Source: an uncultured Clostridium sp.
Lineage (GTDB): Bacteria; Bacillota; Clostridia; TANB77; CAG-465
DNA: 64,000 nucleotides
Assembly: GCA_964481385.1 (NCBI GenBank)
Contig: CAYZTN010000001.1
Location: 255-64,254, forward strand
Direction of reading: 5' to 3'
Both the position numbers and the translations under genes were made by a program. Positions 5,583 to 41,075 of this stretch are shown here, piece after piece. Numbering within the stretch: position 1 is the stretch's first letter; each line of letters begins with the position of its first letter. The notes beneath the pieces were generated by a model, which was given only the letters and a program-made list of their open reading frames with translations, was not told the origin of the DNA and searched no databases.

Positions 5583-5924
5583 TTAATCAGTTGCAACTGT
5601 AGGTCTTCCTGTATCTTCGTCGAAGGCTACAATTAATCCACTAACTTTGAAACCTTGATCTGACAATATTTTCTCATAATCCGCTTGTTTCATAATAGTT
5701 GTGCCATCTTCTTTATATGCTTTTCCATCTGTTCCTCTTGCAACAGCAGCAGCATACTCCATAGCAATAACATTACTTGCGTTTGCTCTATCTGCTTTTT
5801 TTACAGCACTATTAGCTTGTTCTATAACATTTGTGCTAGATAAGCTAACTATTATTGCACCTGCAAGAATCGCTAACACAATTATTGTTATTACCAATAC
5901 AATTAATGATATACCTTTTTTCAT
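5583..5924 (-). CDS. Pilin-like protein, candidate major pilin (MKKG|ISLIVLVITIIVLAILAGAIIV)
   Basis: 113 aa. Short basic leader plus Gly, a 22-aa hydrophobic alpha1-like helix, then a globular domain. Sits in the pilus operon between the pilMNO genes and the peptidase-like gene. Confidence 0.55.
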   Translation of the reverse strand: MKKGISLIVLVITIIVLAILAGAIIVSLSSTNVIEQANSAVKKADRANASNVIAMEYAAAVARGTDGKAYKEDGTTIMKQADYEKILSDQGFKVSGLIVAFDEDTGRPTVATD

Positions 5925-5991
5925 ACATAATTCCTCCTATTTTAAATTTATATTACATCACGCAAAAGGTTAATGCGTGCTATAACCCAAT

Positions 5992-6378
5992 CTACTTTCC
6001 GGTAATAGGTTTACTACTACCTGTACCACTTGTTGAGCCACTACCTGTAGCATCTGTTCCTATAATAGCACTAGGCTCATTATAAATTGTTACATCTCCT
6101 TTCGGAGTAAACGGATTTATATTTCCTGGTTCATATTGTCCTTTTACTTGCCCATCTCTTACCTGAGACGAGTTAGTCTCATGCATCTCCCAATTCTCCT
6201 CTTTTTGAGGATCATACTTAGTATCTTCATACGTAAAATCAGTTTTTTTCACCTTATCGTACGTAATCCCTGTAATATATGATTGGGATTGAGGTATCAA
6301 TATAAGCATAAGAACTAATGCTAGAGATACCAATACAACAACTATACTAATTAACGTAATCCATGCATTTTTACTCAT
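5992..6378 (-). CDS. Membrane-anchored protein with Gly/Ser/Thr-rich C-terminus (possible PilP-like pilus component)
   Basis: 128 aa. One N-terminal TM (ITLISIVVVLVSLALVLMLILI). C-terminal low-complexity GTDATGSGSTSGTGSS. Called only from its position inside the pilus operon. Confidence 0.3.
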   Translation of the reverse strand: MSKNAWITLISIVVVLVSLALVLMLILIPQSQSYITGITYDKVKKTDFTYEDTKYDPQKEENWEMHETNSSQVRDGQVKGQYEPGNINPFTPKGDVTIYNEPSAIIGTDATGSGSTSGTGSSKPITGK

Positions 6379-30609: not shown

Positions 30610-32443
30610 TTAGAAGCCTCCGCCTCCGCCACCTCCGCCGCCAGAACCTCCTCCGCAAGAGAAGCCACCACCAGAATCTGAAATTGGAGGAGTAAAAGCA
30701 GTATTCGTCGCGCTACAAAACATACTATTAAACGTAGAAAATGTACTAATATCTCTACAGAAACTCATAATTGCATAATCCGTATATAAATTTATATTTG
30801 TTTCCGCTAATTCCCTAGGATATTTTACCTTTAATTGTTCGATTACTTTCTTAGCTTTCCCAAGAGCTACCGCATATACCAAATAATGTTCCCACAAAAC
30901 AAGAGACTGTACAGTACAATCTTTCATTTTACTAAAGTCATCTAAAAACTTTGAAAATGCATTCCACATAGCTTTATGTGTTATTCCTTTCCTAGTGCAT
31001 CTTAAATTACCCGACACTTTACCATAAGCCATACCAGCCGTCAATAAATATGTGAAGCTCAATACTAAACCACTATCATATACATCTTCGAAAAGATACA
31101 ACCTACCATATACAATAGTTATAACTAACATAAACGCAGGTATTAAAATTAACCCGCCAGCATCCTTTAAACGGACTTGTTTTAGATCTAATTAAACCTC
31201 GTGCCTTTGCATCTTCTTTTATTTTCTTTTGCCAAATGTCTTTTTTATCAACTGCAGCACTTTGTTCCGAACTCGTGCTAAATCTTTTTTTGAAATCCTC
31301 TAAAGCAAACTTAGTTTCTCTATCAAACAATATGTTTAACGCAAAATATCTCTCATTATCCATAACAGTTTCATCTTTTTCTAATTCTTCTTTATCTATC
31401 AACTCTAATTCAAAATCTTGTACGTTATCTTTATCGTTTTTTATTTCTGTAATTTTAATATGACCTTTTCTTGCTAAATTCATTATTATAGCTGGTCCTA
31501 CTCTAGTATCTTCCATGATACCTAACAGCTCTGCCATTACCGCTGGGCCATAATCTTCAGGAATTTTTCTGTAATACTCTCCATCAAAGTCTGATGCTTC
31601 AAACTCTTTTTTCTTTTTTCTATACCAAATAATTGGGCAGACAATTATCAAAAAAGTATCTATTATTATTAAATATACAGCGATTTTAGCCATGTCTTTT
31701 TTATCATTCGCCTGTTTCGCAAGATTTTCCTCTTCTTTTAAAATATCTTCTAAACCATTTGTTTTGTACGTCTTTTTTACATTACCAAAAAGAGAAGCAT
31801 CCATTAACATTCTTGCTGTAACCTCTGTACCAGCACTTACGTCAGTTACGCTTAATACTAGCGTATCTCCATTTTTAACATCTGTTATTCAATTTAATGG
31901 TCCATGCCCCCAACCTTTTAAGTCTTTTGAAACTCCTGGCGCGGTTATTTTAATATTTACACTACTTATTTTAAACTTCCATCCACTACCTATAAAATTC
32001 CAATGAAGTTCTGCTACATCTGCATATTTTAAAACAACATCGTGCAATATATATGTAATTTTTAGATTTTTTGATTCATAACTACTTGGAGTAAATACTT
32101 TAACTTGTTTTCCACCGTTAATACTGTTCAAGTTATACTTCCCCTCTGTACCAACTGGTAGTTCAAGAGCTGAATAAGTATATTTTTTCCCATTTACTTG
32201 TACATCAGCAACACTAATACCACTTGCACCATACTTATCATTGCTAGCTAATATAATGTCTCTATACAAACCATCAAGCGAACCAGATATTCTAAAATTC
32301 AAATCTTCGGTAACCTGCATATCTCCATTTTTTAAAATTACGGCATCTATGTTTATGCTGTTTAATTTTGCTTCTGCTGCAAAAATAGTTGCAGTAAGCA
32401 TCACTGGTATAATACACAAAAGTATTTTTAATAATCTTTTCAT
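30610..32443 (-). pseudogene. DUF2207-family membrane protein, disrupted (one in-frame TGA + one frameshift)
   Basis: Three ORFs: 31889-32443 (signal peptide + DUF2207 N-domain), 31103-31810, and 30610-31131 (TM + Gly-rich tail SGGGFSCGGGSGGGGGGGGGF typical of DUF2207). The first two are in the same frame, separated by a TGA at 31889-31891. The last is shifted near 31105-31160. Confidence 0.6.
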
Positions 32444-32461: not shown

Positions 32462-35056
32462 TTATTCCATTTTTTCTTTTAATTTATACAATGTGTCTAA
32501 CGCATCTTTTGCAGTTAGTTCGTCAAGACACAATTTATCTAATATACGTCCTACTTCTACTAATTTGTAATTAAACATATCTACTTGCATTGTCTTTGAG
32601 TCTATTGGTTTTACCGTATTTTTGTTTGCTTCTTTTAATGTAGAATGTTTTTCCAAATCATTTAATATTACCTTAGCCCTGTTTACTATCGTGTTTGAAA
32701 TCCCTGCAAGACGTGCTACATATATACCATATGAGCCGTCAGCTGCTCCTTCTACTATTTTTCTTAGAAAAATTACGTCTTCGCCTTTTTCTTTTACTGC
32801 AACTGAGAAATTCTTTACACCATCTAGCTCTTGTTCTAAATCTTTAAGCTCGTGATAGTGTGTTGCAAATAACGTTTTAGCACCTAGCTTTTCCTTGTTT
32901 GCAATATGCTCTACCGTAGCCCACGCTATTGCCATACCGTCATATGTAGAAGTTCCTCTTCCTATTTCGTCTAGTATTACAAGTGACTTGTTTGTTGCAT
33001 TATCTAATATATTCGCAAGTTCACTCATTTCAACCATAAATGTAGATTCTCCGCTAGCTAAGTCATCACTTGCACCAACACGTGTAAATATTCTATCTAC
33101 AATTCCTATTTCCGCTTCATTAGCTGGTACAAAACTTCCTATTTGAGCCATATATGTAATTAATGCAACCTGTCTCATATATGTAGATTTACCTGCCATA
33201 TTAGGCCCAGTTATAATATGGAAACGGTAATCATTGCAGTTTAAAAATGTATCGTTTGGTATAAACGGTGCATTTACATTCTTTTCAACAACCGGATGTC
33301 TACCTGAAACAATTTTAATTTCATCTGTATTAGTAATTTTAGGCATTACATAGTTGTTATCTGTTGCAACTGTTGCAAAGCTACAAAGTGTATCTAGTAC
33401 CGCTATTGCTTCAGCAGACTTTTGTATTCTTACAACTTCTTTTGAAATTGTATCTCTTATTTCTGTAAATAATTTATACTCTAAATCCACTAATTTATCT
33501 TCGCTGCCTAAAATCTTATCTTCTATTTCTTTTAACTCTGGAGTTATAAACCTCTCTTTGTCTGCAAGAGTTTGCTTTCTAATATATCTTCCTTCTGGTA
33601 TATCTTTGTAATTAGATTTAGTTATTTCTATATAATATCCAAATACTCTGTTATATCCAATTTTCAGTCCTTTAATACCAGTTTCTTCACGTTCCCTCGC
33701 TTCTAAGTTCATAATCCAACTTTTTCCGTCACGACTTGCACTTCTTAGTTCGTCCACTTCCGTATTAAACCCAGATTTAATTAACCCGCCTTCTTTAATA
33801 ACTAGTGGTGGTTCTTCTTCTATTGCTTTTTCTACTAATTCAAATATATCTTGAAGGTCGTCAATATTTGTTTCTACTTTTCTTAAAAGCCTCGTTCCAT
33901 CTTTATCTTTTTTTTCAATTAACGCTTGCAAACTTTTTTTAATTGCAGGAAATACTGCAAATGAGTTTTTAAGACATATAAGGTCACGGCCATTACAATT
34001 ACCATTAGTAAGCTTAGTTGTAATACGTTGCGTATCTCTTACACTTTTTAAAAGCATTACAAGTTCGTCTTTTGCAAACATATTGTTATTTAAAACACTT
34101 ACAGCATTTAATCTTTCTTCAATTTCGTCCTTATTAAGAAGTGGATTTTCTACCCAATTTCTTAACTTTCTTGCTCCCATTGCAGTAACAGTTTTATCTA
34201 GCACCCATAAAAGACTTCCTTTTTTTGTTTTTTCCCTATTAGATTCCACAATTTCAAGATTTCTTCTTGTATTTGCGTCTAGCCTCATACAACTTTCTAT
34301 GCTATACTTCTTTATATCATTTATCTGAGATACAGTATTTTTTTGAGTTTCAAATATATAATTTAAAAGAAGTACCAAACTCTTTGTTTCTGCTATGTTA
34401 TATTTATCTTTTAATATATTTAATTCATTTAGTTTTTCAACACTTTCATTTAAATATCTAGATACATATATTTTATCTCGTTTTATAACATTATCTATGA
34501 TATATTTATCACTTAAAACGCTATCTTCTAATACAAGCTCTTTTGGTCTTAGTTTTAACACTTCGTCAATTAGCTTATATGGTGCGTTTATATCGTCACT
34601 ACTTGTAACAAAACATTCACCAGTTGAAATATCAGCATAACTTAATGCGTATGTTCTGCCAAGCTCATATATATTTGCTACAAAGTTATTTTGCGTTTCG
34701 TCTAAGAGCTCATTTTCTGTAATAGTTCCAGGTGTTACGAGTTTAGTTATTTCTCTTTTAACAAGTCCTTTTGCTAAAGCTGGGTCCTCTACCTGCTCAC
34801 ATATGGCTACTTTATATCCTTTTTCTATAAGGCGAGCAACATACATATCTGAACTATGAAATGGAACGCCACACATTGGCGCACGTTTTTCTAAACCACA
34901 ATCTCTACCTGTAAGTGTTAAGTCAAGCTCACGACTTACAAGCTCAGCTTGGTCAAAAAACATCTCATAAAAATCTCCAAGTCTAAAAAAAAGAATTGCG
35001 TCTGAATACTTTTCTCTCATTTCCATATATTGTTGCATCATAGGTGACAATGCCAT
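32462..35056 (-). CDS. mutS: DNA mismatch repair protein MutS
   Basis: 864 aa. Walker A GPNMAGKST, DEIGRGTST. Confidence 0.95.
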   Translation of the reverse strand: MALSPMMQQYMEMREKYSDAILFFRLGDFYEMFFDQAELVSRELDLTLTGRDCGLEKRAPMCGVPFHSSDMYVARLIEKGYKVAICEQVEDPALAKGLVKREITKLVTPGTITENELLDETQNNFVANIYELGRTYALSYADISTGECFVTSSDDINAPYKLIDEVLKLRPKELVLEDSVLSDKYIIDNVIKRDKIYVSRYLNESVEKLNELNILKDKYNIAETKSLVLLLNYIFETQKNTVSQINDIKKYSIESCMRLDANTRRNLEIVESNREKTKKGSLLWVLDKTVTAMGARKLRNWVENPLLNKDEIEERLNAVSVLNNNMFAKDELVMLLKSVRDTQRITTKLTNGNCNGRDLICLKNSFAVFPAIKKSLQALIEKKDKDGTRLLRKVETNIDDLQDIFELVEKAIEEEPPLVIKEGGLIKSGFNTEVDELRSASRDGKSWIMNLEAREREETGIKGLKIGYNRVFGYYIEITKSNYKDIPEGRYIRKQTLADKERFITPELKEIEDKILGSEDKLVDLEYKLFTEIRDTISKEVVRIQKSAEAIAVLDTLCSFATVATDNNYVMPKITNTDEIKIVSGRHPVVEKNVNAPFIPNDTFLNCNDYRFHIITGPNMAGKSTYMRQVALITYMAQIGSFVPANEAEIGIVDRIFTRVGASDDLASGESTFMVEMSELANILDNATNKSLVILDEIGRGTSTYDGMAIAWATVEHIANKEKLGAKTLFATHYHELKDLEQELDGVKNFSVAVKEKGEDVIFLRKIVEGAADGSYGIYVARLAGISNTIVNRAKVILNDLEKHSTLKEANKNTVKPIDSKTMQVDMFNYKLVEVGRILDKLCLDELTAKDALDTLYKLKEKME

Positions 35057-35170
35057 AATAATTCCCCCAAATTCTGTGACAAATTATATCACGTAAATGC
35101 ATAAAAAACAAGAAAAAATTTATGTCTCGCTTTCAAGATTTTACGACAAATAAAAAAACAAGCCAAAGTA

Positions 35171-35455
35171 TTAAACCTTAACTTGTTTATCTCCGTCAAT
35201 TAAAATAAGTGAATAAAAATCTGTGTGATAACCAATATTTTCCGCATTAAATCTCTTGCAATTTTTTATTCTGCTTTCAAAAAAAGGTATTGTAGTTTCT
35301 TGCATTTCTTCTTTCAGCAAATTCAAAATTCTTTCTCCATTTTTTTCAAGCAACATAATTTTATCTTTATCTGGAACATATACATAAGTATTTTCTTCAA
35401 TAGTCAACTCCCCGATCTTCTCATTTTTATATGCAACAACATACTTCTCTACCAT
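35171..35455 (-). CDS. HipS-like protein (HipA N-terminal-subdomain-like small protein)
   Basis: 94 aa. KYVVAYKNEKIGELTIEENTYVYVPD ... IPFFESRIKN resembles the HipA N-subdomain-1 / HipS pattern. Confidence 0.4.
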   Translation of the reverse strand: MVEKYVVAYKNEKIGELTIEENTYVYVPDKDKIMLLEKNGERILNLLKEEMQETTIPFFESRIKNCKRFNAENIGYHTDFYSLILIDGDKQVKV

Positions 35456-35539
35456 GTGCGCATTCTCCTTTCATTTCATTAGAAATGTAATATATTTTTC
35501 AACAAGTGAAATTATATCACATTTTTGTAGTTATGTCAA

Positions 35540-36529
35540 CTATCTTGTCTGTCCTATATCTTCTGGCTCATACCCCATACACATAACTTTGTCTATTTCT
35601 TTTTTTCTAGAATTAAATGACATAAGTGCAACCGCCCTAACATGTTCAGGAATTTTAGCATTAATCCTAGTCTCAACGCTATCCATTGCTTGCTCTATAT
35701 CCAAATTTTCATAGCAATCCATCATAAAATCATAAATATCATCATCTGTACAAAGCTCATCCAAAGTATATTTCCAAAGTGAAACCTGTTCACCATCAGT
35801 CGGCAAAACGCTAATTTTGGGATCTACCTTATCCATACTACGTTTTACTCCTACTGGATTCTCAGCTAATCTTTTTAGCAAATCATTATCCATATCTAAC
35901 ATAAGACTATGCTCATTGTCATACAACGGAGCTAGACGCAATTTCCCGTTTTCGTCAGATATAAGACTGATATTTTCGGTATGCCTATCCGCCTCACCAA
36001 CAAACATATCAAAAGCTAATATTTTTTCTATGCCCGTAACAAAGCTTCTTGTTTCTTCTTTCGAAAGGCCTTCCTTTTTCATACTAGCAATAGTCTTTTT
36101 TAACACATCTACAGCATCAACTACATCTATATAATCTGGGTTATCACAAGTGTTACCTATAAAAGAATCTAAACTATATAATTGCTCATTATCTTTTAAC
36201 ACGCTATATGATAGAATTCCGTTTTTTCCATCTTTTTTTACCAAATCGCAATGAGCACACTCTATACCAGCTTGACGTGCCAATTCTTCAACAATAAGCT
36301 CTGAATAAGCACTTGCATTTGGAACATCATCTAACATCATAGTTTCCTTATACAACGCTTTTGTGCCATTTAAATCTAACCAGTTTTTATCTCTAAACTC
36401 TGTACCCATCATTTCTCTAGATCCTTTTGGGAATAGTATATTTAACTTATCTAAATTAATATATCCTTCTTCGTCTCTAAAAGTTTCTAAATTCTCAGGA
36501 CTTGTATTTGTTATAGCATATTCTGCCAC
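35540..36529 (-). CDS. HipA/HipT-family serine/threonine kinase-like protein
   Basis: 329 aa. Catalytic-loop-like FDMFVGEADRHTENISLI (D-x-H-x-x-N) and LAPLYDNEHSL (the HipA APxYD motif). Size matches HipT (~335 aa). Confidence 0.5.
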   Translation of the reverse strand: MAEYAITNTSPENLETFRDEEGYINLDKLNILFPKGSREMMGTEFRDKNWLDLNGTKALYKETMMLDDVPNASAYSELIVEELARQAGIECAHCDLVKKDGKNGILSYSVLKDNEQLYSLDSFIGNTCDNPDYIDVVDAVDVLKKTIASMKKEGLSKEETRSFVTGIEKILAFDMFVGEADRHTENISLISDENGKLRLAPLYDNEHSLMLDMDNDLLKRLAENPVGVKRSMDKVDPKISVLPTDGEQVSLWKYTLDELCTDDDIYDFMMDCYENLDIEQAMDSVETRINAKIPEHVRAVALMSFNSRKKEIDKVMCMGYEPEDIGQTR

Positions 36530-36561
36530 TTTAACTCACCTCTTATGTTTATTGTATATAT

Positions 36562-37620
36562 TTATTCTCCTGCTTGCAATCTTTCTGCTTTATCAAAAGC
36601 TTGAAGTGCCTCTAGTAATTCTTCAATATTTCCATTCATAAAGCTTTCTAATTGATATATTGTATAGTTAATTCTGTGGTCAGTAACCCTGCCTTGTGGA
36701 TAGTTATACGTTCTTATCTTTTCACTTCTTGCACCACTTCCAACTTGAAGTTTTCTTGTAGAAGCAATTTCGCTATTTTGTTTTTCTTTCATATAATCAT
36801 ATAGTTTAGCCTTAAGCATTCTCATACAAGACTCTCTATTTTGTATCTGTGAACGTTCAGTCTGACAAGATACAACAAAGCCTGTTGGAATATGCGTAAT
36901 TCTTACTGCAGAATCAGTTTTGTTTATGTGCTGTCCGCCAGCTCCACTTGCTCTATATGTATCAAATTTTAAATCTGCTGGGTTAATCTCCACTTCTATA
37001 TCTTCAACCTCAGGTAGCACCGCAACTGTTACAGTTGAAGTATGTATTCTTCCGCTTGCTTCAGTTTCTGGAACACGTTGTACTCTATGAACTCCGCTTT
37101 CAAACTTTAACTTACTGTACGCCCCTTTTCCTTTTATCATAAAAGATATTTCTTTAATGCCACCAAGTTCAGTTTCGTTTAAATCCATAACTTCAACTTG
37201 CCAATGCATAAGGTCTGCATACATCGAATACATTCTGTACAAATTATATGCAAAAAGTGTAGCTTCTTCTCCACCTGCTCCACCACGTATTTCAATAATT
37301 ACGTTGCTATCGTCTGCCTCGTCTTTTGGAAGTAGCATTATTTTTAATTCTTCTTCTATTTCTCCAAGTTTTTCCTTGTTTTCATAATACTCTACTTCAG
37401 CCATTTCTTTCATTTCAGCATCGCTCATAAGTTCCTCGGCCTCGTCCATATTTTGCTTAGTCTTTTTGTATTCTCTATACTTTTCAACTATCTCAGTCAA
37501 ACCAGAATGTTCTTTCATGTATTTTTTAAATGTATTTGTATCTGCAATTACTGCTGGATCAGATATAAGCTGATTTAATTCCTCATATCTTGCTTCTACT
37601 TGTTCTAACTTTTCTAACAT
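36562..37620 (-). CDS. prfA: Peptide chain release factor 1
   Basis: GGQ motif ([12 protein letters not shown]) and PxT motif (PETEAS). Start reassigned to [15 protein letters not shown] with RBS GAGGTAAGG; the ORF-track start is 37668. Confidence 0.95.
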
Positions 37621-37698
37621 TTTCCTTACCTCATATATTATTTTAACATGTATACTAAAATTTTTCAAGACATATATTGTTATATGAAGGAGGGAATC

Positions 37699-37818
37699 TT
37701 GGTTTCATTAGTGTCATGCTGTCATTGGGGACGTTTCTCTTTGACACTGCATATATAATTTTAAGGTTTGTGTCAAAGAGAAACGTCCCCAATGACAGCA
37801 TGACACTAATGAAACCAA
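37699..37818. repeat. Palindromic repeat, copy 2 (120 bp, ~49-bp perfect arms containing GTCATTGGGGACGTTTC)
   Basis: TTGGTTTCATTAGTGTCATGCTGTCATTGGGGACGTTTCTCTTTGACAC ... exact reverse complement. Sits in the divergent prfA / GT2 intergenic region. Confidence 0.85.
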
Positions 37819-37831
37819 ATAACAAAATATT

Positions 37832-38920
37832 ATGATTTCGCTTAGCGTTTGTATGATAGTCAAAAATGAAGAAAAAGTTCTCGAACGATGTCTTACCTGC
37901 ATTAAAAAAACTGCTGATGAAATAGTTATTGTAGATACTGGTTCAACTGATAAAACTAAAGAAATTGCTAAAAAATTCACAGATAAAATATACGATTTTG
38001 AATGGATAGACGATTTCTCTGCTGCCAGAAACTATTCGTTTTCAAAAGCTACAAAAGAATATATTATGTGGCTTGACGCCGATGATGTTATACTAGAAAA
38101 AGACCAACAAAAGTTACTTGAACTAAAAGAAACTTTAGATGGAAATATAGACATGGTGCTTTTAAAGTATAACACAGGATTTGACGAAAATGGCAACGTC
38201 ACTTTCTCATACTACAGAGAACGTATTTTAAAAAAAGCTGTAGGTTACACATGGCTTAGTCCAATACACGAAGTTATACCCATTTCAGGGAACACGCTAT
38301 ACAGTGACATTTGTATAACCCATAAAAAGTGTGGTGTATCTAACCCTAAACGAAACCTAGAAATATTTGATAACATGTTAAAAAAAGGAATTAAACTAGA
38401 CCCTAGGCAACAATTTTATTACGCTCGTGAACTTTATTATACCAAAAGGTACACTGAAGCTATAACTAACTTTAATGCTGTTCTAGACAATGAACAAGCG
38501 TGGATTGAAAATAAAATAAACGCATGTCTAGATTTATATAACTGCTATATTGCTTTAAACGATAAAACAAATGCATTTCTTGCGCTTACTCATAGTTTTA
38601 TATATGACTTACCTAGAGCCGAAATATGCTGTGAGCTTGGAAGTTTTTTCATGGATAACAACAAATATGATCTAGCTTCACATTGGTATAAACAAGCTTT
38701 AAACTGTAAACTAGACACAACTCGCGGTGGTTTTTATATGCTTGACTGCTATAAATATATACCATATATAGAGCTTTGTGTATGCAGTTTTAGGTTAGGA
38801 GATATTTCTCAAGCAATTAAATATAACGAACTGGCAGGAGTTGAAAAGCCTACTAGCAAAGAATACCTATATAACAAGGAGTTTTTTGAAAAACAAAATA
38901 CACAAAACAAATCAAATTAA
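37832..38920 (+). CDS. Family-2 glycosyltransferase with C-terminal TPR-like repeats
   Basis: 362 aa. N-terminus ISLSVCMIVKNEEKVLERCL...DEIVIVDTGSTDKT...WLDADDV is GT-A/GT2. The helical repeat C-terminus resembles spore-surface glycosyltransferases. Confidence 0.8.
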   Translation: MISLSVCMIVKNEEKVLERCLTCIKKTADEIVIVDTGSTDKTKEIAKKFTDKIYDFEWIDDFSAARNYSFSKATKEYIMWLDADDVILEKDQQKLLELKETLDGNIDMVLLKYNTGFDENGNVTFSYYRERILKKAVGYTWLSPIHEVIPISGNTLYSDICITHKKCGVSNPKRNLEIFDNMLKKGIKLDPRQQFYYARELYYTKRYTEAITNFNAVLDNEQAWIENKINACLDLYNCYIALNDKTNAFLALTHSFIYDLPRAEICCELGSFFMDNNKYDLASHWYKQALNCKLDTTRGGFYMLDCYKYIPYIELCVCSFRLGDISQAIKYNELAGVEKPTSKEYLYNKEFFEKQNTQNKSN

Positions 38921-38989
38921 CATTAAATAAACACTTTGCATAAAATATATAGAATTAAGTTTTAAACATATATATATAAGGAGGCGTTT

Positions 38990-40054
38990 ATGAATAATTG
39001 TTTTAACCCTTGCTGTCCACCTAAACCATGTGTATTAGTTGGGCCTCAAGGTATTCAAGGTTGCCAAGGCATTCCCGGACCTATAGGTCCTACTGGCCCA
39101 CAAGGTGTTCAAGGTATTCAAGGAATGCAAGGACCATGCGGACCAACAGGTGCAACAGGTGCTACTGGAATAACCGGTCCAACAGGAGCTACTGGAGCTA
39201 CTGGACCAACTGGAGAAACTGAAACCATAACTATCGCAAATACTGTTACAGGCGAGCCCGGTACAGAAGCAGCAGTAAACGAAAGAAAAGTAGGAAATGA
39301 ACACATATTGGAATTTGTAATACCACGTGGAACTGACGGAACTAGTGTGCAAATATTAGGCAGCTACCCTAGTTTACAAGAATTAGAAGAAAACGAGCCA
39401 ATTGGCCAAAAAGGAGACGCATATATAATAGATAAAGACTTATACGTATGGTCAGATAACGACAACAGATGGGTTAATGCAGGCGAAATAAAAGGACCTC
39501 AAGGAGAACCTGGAGAAAAGGGAGACCAAGGAGAACAGGGCATTCCTGGGCCTACACTAATTAGAAATGCATATCTTCTAACCTACAATGACGGGACATC
39601 TGAAGATGGAGTTCCTGTACCTACAAAAACTAAACTACCTATTGACAGAACCGAAATTAATATAGGAAATATTATAACATTAGATCCAAACGAAGAAACA
39701 GTTAAGTTTAATCTTATTGGACATTACAAAGTAACTTTTGTAGTCTCAGCTTATTCACAAAAGACAGATACAGATTTTGTGCCAGAAAAAGACTTTGTAT
39801 CGCTTGGTTTTAGGCAAGTAGGCACAGATAATATATATATTGGAGCAAGTAGTTGGAATTATGACGAAATTGCTATACAAGTAACTGGTCAAGGAATATT
39901 AGCAATTAATGATACTTCTCAGCTATATGAATTAGTAAATCTAGGACCAGAAACTATATATCTGCATTCACCAGATTTAAAGTATATTGATTCTAATTCT
40001 TACTTTACTAATCCACTTGTAAATATTTTAATTGAATATTTAGGTAGAGAATAA
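38990..40054 (+). CDS. Collagen-like (G-X-Y) triple-helix repeat protein, BclA-like exosporium/surface glycoprotein candidate
   Basis: 354 aa. Cys-rich N-terminus [14 protein letters not shown], about 25 GXY triplets ([14 protein letters not shown]...[13 protein letters not shown]), an interruption, more GXY ([20 protein letters not shown]), and a ~170-aa beta-rich C-terminal domain. Locally GC-rich. Confidence 0.85.
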
Positions 40055-40259: not shown

Positions 40260-41075
40260 TTACACTGCTGCCCTATTTGGCTGCATAGACTCTAATCTTA
40301 TCTTATCTGCAATCATTGCAATAAATTCCGAGTTTGTTGGCTTACCTTTGTTAGAATTTACAGTATAACCAAATATTTTATCATGCATAGCAATTTCTCC
40401 ACGGTTCCATGCTACTTCTATTGCATGCCTTATCGCACGTTCTACTCTTGATGGAGTAGTCTTATACTTCTTAGCAAGCAACGGATACATTGTCTTTGTG
40501 ATAGCATTTATTATTTCTTCATTCTCCACTGAAATAATTATTGCTTCCCTCAGATATTGATATCCTTTAATATGAGCTGGCACACCTAGATCATGAATTA
40601 TATTTGTCACTTTCACTTCCACAGGTTCACCTTTTTGCATAGGCGCATGTGCTGTAACATACTTTGTGCCTTTGTTTTCATAAAACACAGCTGGCTCGTT
40701 ACTTAACATTTCTTTTAACCTGTTTGTTAATGTTTCCAAGTCGAAAGGCTTTATAACATAATATGCTGCGCCAAGCGCTATCGCCTTTCTCGTTATTTTT
40801 TCTTGTCCTATTGCGGACATTACAACAGTAAACGGTTTCTTTTCCAATACTGTTTCATTTAGTTCTTCTAAAACAACCAAGCCATCTTTTTCTGGCATTA
40901 TTATATCTAGCAATAAAATATCTGGTCTTAGCTCTTTAATCTTAGGAATTACGTTTGTACCATCGTTTAAGCTACCTACTACTTCCATACCACTTTGGGC
41001 ATTAATATACATCGTTATTAGTTTGACAAATTCTGCGTTATCATCTACAATCATTACTTTCAATTTTTCTTCCAT
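40260..41075 (-). CDS. spo0A: Sporulation master regulator Spo0A
   Basis: 271 aa. Receiver domain (MIVDDNAEF...LLLDIIMP) and the Spo0A-specific C-terminal DNA-binding domain ([16 protein letters not shown]...[15 protein letters not shown]). Confidence 0.9.

Follow-up and report, generated by a model that had tools for sequence, protein, structure and literature searches.

Analysis of 64,000 nucleotides (nt) of DNA from an uncultured Clostridium sp. (contig CAYZTN010000001.1, positions 255 to 64,254; this whole stretch is referred to here as the window) identified, directly downstream from the release factor gene prfA, two minus-strand genes that encode a HipA-fold Ser/Thr kinase of 329 amino acids (aa) and a 94-aa protein with a predicted HipS-like fold. 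The two proteins very probably form one functional module; the gene pair recurs at about 30 loci in uncultured gut Clostridia, where its neighborhoods are of several unrelated kinds. By gene layout, the module appears to be a divergent member of the hipJS type, a kind of Hip module predicted bioinformatically. On balance, the two proteins likely act as a toxin-antitoxin or abortive-infection pair, with the small protein as the inhibitor of the kinase, and a conserved promoter dedicated to the small gene suggests how an excess of the inhibitor might be maintained.

The 329-aa protein is a HipA-fold kinase

The Pfam HipA_C model (PF07804) matched the 329-aa protein with 39.2 bits, above its cut-off of 30.5 (E = 8e-10), and hhalign comparison of a 27-sequence alignment of the kinase family with seven HipA sequences, taken from Table S1 of Gerdes et al., gave a probability of 92% (E = 5.8e-7), with kinase residues 40-211 mapping onto HipA residues 161-333. 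The AlphaFold (AF2) model of the kinase (pLDDT, 89.6; pTM, 0.90) retrieved CtkA of Helicobacter pylori as the first match in a Foldseek search of the PDB (1.9e-10; TM score, 0.61-0.75), followed by HipA (~1e-7), the Legionella HipT (~1e-6), and the Escherichia coli HipT (~1.6e-5); the matches to CtkA, HipA, and HipT all had a probability of 1.00. A sequence-profile search of the PDB likewise placed CtkA first (9.4e-5), with the HipT of Legionella pneumophila second (0.0067), and the best match of the kinase in the PADLOC defense library was PDC-M03A (1.9e-21). The protein is a HipA-fold Ser/Thr kinase. About 150 N-terminal residues of HipA were left unmatched by hhalign, and because the alignment to HipA begins only at position 161, the kinase lacks N-subdomain-1.

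The kinase motifs D181-R-H-T-E-N186 and A200-P-L-Y-D204 are present. Residues D181, H183, E185, N186, Y203, D204, and E77 are invariant in the 27 family members, and K61 is conserved in at least 90% of them; in the hhalign alignment, K61, E77, D181/H183/N186, and D204 coincide with the ATP-binding, catalytic, and Mg-binding residues of HipA. The fold and these conserved catalytic residues suggest that the kinase is catalytically competent. The stretch corresponding to the Gly-rich loop, S37-R-E-M-M-G42, contains one Gly and a Ser (S37) that is mostly, not always, conserved; the Pfam match begins at residue 55. A preliminary description of this DNA had proposed a HipA-family kinase with the catalytic loop and the APLYD motif and without N-subdomain-1. 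That proposal is borne out by the above-threshold HipA_C match, the HipA-fold similarity found by hhalign, and the predicted fold.

The small partner is HipS-like in predicted structure

The 94-aa protein had been described as resembling HipS and the N-subdomain missing from the kinase. This resemblance is seen in the predicted fold but not in sequence, in which all profile comparisons were nonsignificant. The protein alone gave no significant Pfam, NCBIfam, or PADLOC match, and an 8-sequence profile of its family retrieved nothing relevant from the PDB, neither HipS nor HipA. When 42 family members were scanned singly, none matched a PADLOC model or the HIRAN Pfam model, and the Couple_hipA model (PF13657) matched 1 member, nonsignificantly (E = 0.16). 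An hhalign comparison of the family with 11 HipA N-subdomain-1 sequences gave a probability of 6% (P = 0.006) and covered only the first 30 residues, which correspond to a β-hairpin with an I-G-x-L motif. The family falls outside the existing Couple_hipA sequence model.

The AF2 model of the small protein (42-sequence input; pLDDT, 85.7) was compared by Foldseek with 350,542 PDB chains, and the top 18 matches were all HipA N-terminal domains or HipS, among them 7czo (HipA N-terminal domain; probability, 0.99; TM score, 0.58/0.52), 8ezr_A (HipS of L. pneumophila; probability, 0.94; TM score, 0.52), and 7ab3_E (HipS of E. coli; probability, 0.91; TM score, 0.52). A ranking made up solely of HipA N-terminal domains and HipS among so many chains cannot be chance, and because it is so exclusive we accept a HipS-like fold for the modeled protein despite weak E-values.

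Kinase and small gene are kept together

The kinase family comprised 34 clusters at 90% identity, and its genome matches were all metagenome-assembled genomes of uncultured gut Clostridia (from rabbit, roe deer, goat, and human). Hidden Markov models (HMMs) of both families placed a small-family gene directly 3' of the kinase gene wherever downstream sequence exists, bar the three most distant kinases, and the reverse look-up from small proteins P0062 and P0076 again found a family kinase directly upstream. Run exhaustively with HMMER against 1.84 billion representatives, the small-protein profile yielded about 150 clusters, nearly all of standalone proteins of 77-110 aa, and no full-length HipA with an N-terminal match; repeat matches in very long proteins were discarded as spurious. 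Two of the proteins found, P0136 (421 aa) and P0183 (424 aa), are fusions in which the kinase is followed by a charged linker of about 30 residues and a C-terminal small domain, and such fusions are Rosetta-stone evidence for a predicted physical partnership.

Both genes are under purifying selection, with ratios of nonsynonymous to synonymous substitution rates (dN/dS) of 0.12-0.15 for the kinase gene and 0.26-0.28 for the small gene. Since homologs of the two open reading frames (ORFs) are paired in about 30 loci and dN/dS is low, both ORFs are real genes. Divergence is far faster in the module than in prfA, the prfA protein being 98% identical where the kinase is 70% identical.

Degenerate copies of the kinase gene were found in two instances. 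Compared with locus L007 (6001-7472), locus L028 (3678-4705) lacks about 444 bp in frame; the deletion takes out kinase residues ~138-285, with the catalytic and Mg-binding motifs among them, and spares the small gene. The flanks are 100% and 97% identical to those of L007, and the small gene, too, falls within 97-100% identity. L028 carries a naturally disarmed kinase whose partner is retained. A metagenomic variant (P0229 and P0231) more than 90% identical to the window kinase carries a frameshift that splits the protein into products of 110 aa and 236 aa. The frameshift lies at an A7 homopolymer tract (GTAAAAAAAGATGG; window positions 36227-36240, kinase codons ~98-100) and reflects either slippage-mediated inactivation or a sequencing error.

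Two further observations concern the composition of the module. Locus L027 (4965-8344), which encodes kinases among the three most distant, contains two tandem kinase paralogs, each followed by an ORF of 105-116 aa with a HipS-like N-terminal β-hairpin motif; an additional 78-aa ORF of the same kind lies between the kinases. In a subclade with kinases of 371-393 aa, a conserved gene for a protein of 108-125 aa lies upstream of the kinase gene, at or nearly at its start (L007 [5647-6000], L013, L015, L018, L020, L021, and L022). Its product has no Pfam domain and no recognizable helix-turn-helix (HTH) and has no homolog in the window; it could be a third component in this subclade.

A conserved promoter sequence precedes the small gene

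Four minus-strand genes stand in a row in the ORF list of the window: prfA, the kinase gene, the small gene, and mutS (Table 1). The kinase ORF begins 32 nt past the prfA stop codon and is followed by the 94-aa ORF, as previously described; the gap between kinase stop and small-gene start, earlier given as 85 nt, is 84 nt. This spacer contains a sigma-70/sigma-A-type promoter sequence that agrees with the consensus at 12 of 12 positions and has an extended -10 TG. An equivalent near-consensus promoter is present in the kinase-small gene spacer of 19 of 20 loci, always with a 17-nt distance between its two elements and usually with the TG; each of the 19 scores 11-13 of 13, above its own shuffles at P <= 0.017, and the loci include kinases with identities as low as about 31%. 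Several of the 20 loci are close relatives, and independent lineages number nearer ten.

The 32-nt gap between prfA and the kinase gene has no terminator-like site, which argues for read-through from prfA, and the kinase gene is probably cotranscribed with prfA in the window; a promoter-like site was found in the prfA start region (37668-37640). In other genomes the kinase gene has its own promoter and an upstream terminator. With the small gene under two promoters and the kinase gene under one, the small protein would be expected in excess, and this arrangement is the one to be expected if the small protein must exceed the kinase.

Relationship to known Hip systems

In the survey by Gerdes, Baerentsen, and Brodersen (mBio 2021), 1,239 Hip kinases were sorted according to gene organization (PMC8262856). 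Their clade XI contains the short core kinases HipG, HipI, HipJ, and HipM (279-321 aa), for which putative antitoxins are encoded downstream; hipJS, represented by two modules, consists of a kinase and HipS alone, with no DNA-binding protein, while hipIN consists of a kinase and a HipS-like-HIRAN protein and HipL is a kinase-HipS-like-HIRAN fusion (PMC8262856). No later paper on hipJS was found in the literature, and the functions of clade XI remain predictions. The pair described here shares with hipJS a bicistronic layout, with a short core kinase that lacks N-subdomain-1 encoded first, a HipS-type protein of about 100 aa encoded second, and no DNA-binding partner; its likeness to clade XI is suggested indirectly by the PDC-M03A match. 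It differs from hipJS in two respects: the HipS of hipJS was recognized by sequence, whereas here the likeness is seen in the predicted structure only, and the kinase is slightly longer than HipG, HipI, HipJ, and HipM. The preliminary description regarded the reversed gene order without HipB as unusual. This order is already that of hipJS (PMC8262856), and the novelty of the module was for this reason overstated, as was its connection to prfA and prmC.

PDC-M03, a candidate defense system with two genes, one for a HipA protein and one for a protein with a HIRAN domain (PMC13245101), matches the hipIN organization. The PDC-M03A models match our kinase, and in both cases the partner gene lies downstream; in the two fusions, P0136 and P0183, a HipS-like domain follows the kinase, as it does in HipL. 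In contrast to hipIN, PDC-M03, and HipL, neither the pair nor the two fusions contain a HIRAN domain, and the small protein matches no PADLOC model.

The split hipBST systems of E. coli O127:H6 and L. pneumophila also combine a core kinase (HipT, ~335 aa) with a separate protein of the N-subdomain-1 fold (HipS, ~103 aa), close to the 329 aa and 94 aa found here, and HipS is the neutralizing protein. In hipBST, Trp65 of HipS is wedged into the pocket of the ejected Gly-rich loop of HipT (PMC10627512); by analogy, the invariant I56-P-F58-F59 segment of the small protein might be a candidate, as an inference only, for the role of Trp65. The gene order is different, hipS lying upstream of hipT (hipB-hipS-hipT), whereas here the kinase gene comes first; HipT's Gly-rich loop has an SxS motif that our kinase does not; and the third gene, hipB, which encodes an HTH protein, is absent here. 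Between mutS and the divergent glycosyltransferase gene beyond prfA there is no further nonoverlapping ORF of at least 50 aa and hence no adjacent HTH gene, so the earlier statement that HipB is missing stands. The label HipT-like, used in the same description, is appropriate for size and architecture, but in both profile and fold the kinase is closer to CtkA and HipA than to HipT. Canonical hipBA has the same kinase fold and catalytic motifs and contains the N-subdomain-1 fold within the system; there, however, the subdomain is fused N-terminally to the kinase, and the HTH protein HipB, whose gene lies upstream, is the antitoxin.

Among solved structures, CtkA (JHP940) of H. pylori is the closest, and it is also the best PDB profile match; with 325 aa and a HipA-like core without N-subdomain-1, it is similar in length and architecture. 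It differs from our kinase in sequence (~16% identity) and in having been described as an effector kinase with proinflammatory action that is delivered through Tfs3, a type IV secretion system encoded by an integrative and conjugative element (ICE).

hipJS-type modules have so far been defined from two examples; the present family contributes some 30 kinase loci and some 150 clusters of small proteins from gut Clostridia. To these it adds kinases naturally fused to HipS and a strong, conserved promoter of the HipS-like gene's own. The dedicated promoter suggests how a Hip module may be balanced without a DNA-binding autoregulator. As HipS-like partners evidently can diverge past sequence detection, sequence-based surveys probably undercount such modules. 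No new principle emerges from these findings, and no link between a Hip kinase and release factor 1 (RF1) is established.

Proposed function and alternatives

In the toxin-antitoxin or abortive-infection reading, the 329-aa kinase would be the putative toxin, a HipA-fold Ser/Thr enzyme predicted to be active. The 94-aa protein would supply the fold of the missing subdomain, bind the kinase as HipS binds HipT, and keep it inactive; both binding and inhibition are suggested by the HipS-HipT analogy, the strict gene pairing, and the natural fusions. As there is no HTH autoregulator, the balance is probably set by transcription, with the kinase gene read from prfA and the small gene provided with an added promoter, whose activity is suggested by its conserved sequence and which would keep the inhibitor in excess. 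Loss or displacement of the small protein would lead to growth arrest through phosphorylation of an essential target by the kinase; by analogy, this target would be an aminoacyl-tRNA synthetase. The varied neighborhoods, the tandem paralogs in L027, the deletion in L028, the A7 frameshift, and fast evolution under purifying selection are suggestive of toxin-antitoxin-like behavior.

Several points weigh against this interpretation. The case for toxicity, binding, and neutralization is circumstantial. Sequence comparison gave no significant match of the small protein to HipS or HipA N-subdomain-1, and the Foldseek E-values of the small protein are weak (~0.1); the Gly-rich loop of the kinase is atypical (SREMMG), without the SxS autophosphorylation motif; and the nearest solved relative, CtkA, has been described not as a toxin but as a secreted effector kinase. 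A tblastn search of phage and plasmid collections with the kinase gave no match. Synteny is kept within subclades, so that mobility of the module is limited. Finally, the natural fusions fit a noninhibitory lid equally well, because the homologous subdomain of HipA is a structural part of the enzyme and not an inhibitor.

This last point leads to the main rival reading, which is possible if rather unlikely: the kinase and the small protein would together be a split HipA-like enzyme, in which the small protein is an obligatory lid that completes or activates the kinase, and the whole would be a lineage-specific signaling kinase of gut Clostridia that does not arrest growth. Such a reading draws on the observation that N-subdomain-1 is an integral part of HipA (PMC10627512) and agrees with the kinase-small-domain fusions and with the purifying selection on both genes. 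It also agrees with the conserved synteny within subclades, where the neighbors are housekeeping or sporulation genes and not mobile elements, and with the finding of no phage or plasmid copies. However, a dedicated small-gene promoter in 19 of 20 loci argues for an excess of the small protein and not for 1:1 stoichiometry, the deleted or frameshifted kinase variants keep an intact small gene, and in both characterized split systems HipS neutralizes HipT. We also considered, instead of a selfish toxin-antitoxin module, a domesticated, HipB-independent split-HipA signaling kinase of a gut Clostridia lineage with a promoter-dosed HipS-like lid from a sequence family that Pfam does not cover, in which kinase dosage would track the translation apparatus via cotranscription with prfA and the substrate would be a translation factor besides the known aminoacyl-tRNA synthetases; we think this improbable.

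The position next to prfA appears incidental

The preliminary description proposed that the module had taken the place of prmC in the prfA operon and that its position might link it to translation control. In a stronger form, the module would be wired to translation termination, having replaced prmC, with the kinase acting on or with RF1. The 32-nt gap without a terminator and the likely cotranscription are in keeping with such wiring, as are the retention of the arrangement in a related species with 98% identical RF1 and the fact that HipA-family kinases act on translation components (PMC8262856). The distribution of the module makes it very improbable.

The prfA-kinase-small gene arrangement is confined to the closest relatives, in which the kinase is 70-100% identical; in the contig of an identical strain (L001), mutS follows the module where the contig extends that far. 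Elsewhere the module occupies no fewer than five unrelated settings: between nth and HAD/spoVG/uvrC (L006 and L011), after an ABC transporter (the L007 group), in front of the S10 ribosomal operon (L010 and, judged from downstream sequence similarity alone, probably also L024), after sleB-ypeB and before pcrA (L111, with the same pcrA side in L025), and after spoIIGA-sigE (L114). Conversely, none of 80 other prfA loci from metagenomes carries the kinase gene or the small gene. The nearest prfA relatives (74-75% RF1 identity) have no adjacent prmC, no module, and a different downstream gene, and prmC stands beside prfA again only at RF1 identities of 61% or less. The module cannot therefore be said to stand in place of prmC, the adjacent prmC being already absent from prfA loci that have no module. 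An empty prfA-mutS site was sought among the 80 metagenomic loci, which proved uninformative on this point, the downstream gene of the nearest (75%) being a different one. Within the 64-kb window, no ORF of at least 180 aa has a PrmC-like NPP[YFW] motif, and five prmC candidates of 270-290 aa proved to be other genes or to have no family match. Because distant members occupy unrelated contexts and other prfA loci do not have the module, its position beside prfA looks lineage specific and incidental, and the suggested link to translation control through prfA finds no support.

Another reading, in which the kinase would be secreted or injected as an effector like CtkA and the small protein would be its chaperone or immunity factor, is highly unlikely as well. 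It is favored by CtkA being the best match by sequence profile (9.4e-5) and by fold (1.9e-10; TM score, 0.61-0.75). Against it, CtkA shares only about 16% identity with our kinase, the surroundings contain no genes of a secretion system or ICE, the kinase has no evident signal peptide, and the HipS-like fold of the partner points to the Hip toxin-antitoxin systems.

Features of the locus and neighboring genes

The coordinates of the module and its flanking genes are given in Table 1. The prfA ORF as listed spans 36562-37668 and begins with TTG; an ATG at 37620 would give a protein of 352 aa, and this is the likely true start, as gene callers gave 352 aa in L001 and L003. The kinase ORF begins with GTG, with AAGAGGTGAG just before it. 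The module ends at the hairpin that overlaps the small-gene stop codon, before the mutS promoter.

Table 1. Positions in the window of the module and its flanking features
Feature	Position	Strand	Evidence or remark
prfA (peptide chain release factor 1)	36562-37620	-	TIGR00019, 2.6e-157; PCRF and RF-1 domains
329-aa HipA-family Ser/Thr kinase core, putative toxin	35540-36529	-	HipA_C, hhalign, predicted fold
Internal sigma-70/sigma-A promoter of the small gene (predicted)	35511-35539	-	TTGACA, 17-nt spacer, TGATATAAT
94-aa small protein, putative antitoxin or regulatory lid	35171-35455	-	Predicted HipS/HipA-N-subdomain-1-like fold
Terminator-like hairpin and T-run	35156-35188	-	Overlaps small-gene stop codon; same sequence in L003
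mutS	32462-35056	-	Downstream neighbor, beyond the terminator-like hairpin

An inverted repeat with perfect 49-nt arms and a 22-nt loop (37699-37747 and 37770-37818) lies where prfA and the glycosyltransferase gene diverge, in their promoter region, and occurs nowhere else in the window. An Rfam scan of 34900-38000 returned nothing but subthreshold miRNA-hairpin matches at this palindrome. The prfA-glycosyltransferase spacer is 80 nt in a related species (L003) versus 211 nt in the window; because of this difference, the palindrome looks like an insertion, and it is possibly an assembly artifact.

Just 3' of mutS, a gene for a DUF2207 membrane protein (30610-32443, minus strand) is broken into three consecutive, partly overlapping ORFs, the first with the DUF2207 N-domain and the next two with pieces of DUF2207_C, and it represents either a pseudogene or two frameshift errors. 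An intact DUF2207 gene lies directly 3' of the kinase-small gene module in L114.

On the other side of prfA, a family-2 glycosyltransferase with TPR repeats and then a protein with collagen triple-helix repeats are encoded on the plus strand (37832-40054). This gene pair, which is kept beside prfA in related species (L003 and L004), is reminiscent of BclA-type exosporium glycoprotein loci of spore formers. Just past the collagen-repeat gene lies spo0A (40260-41075).

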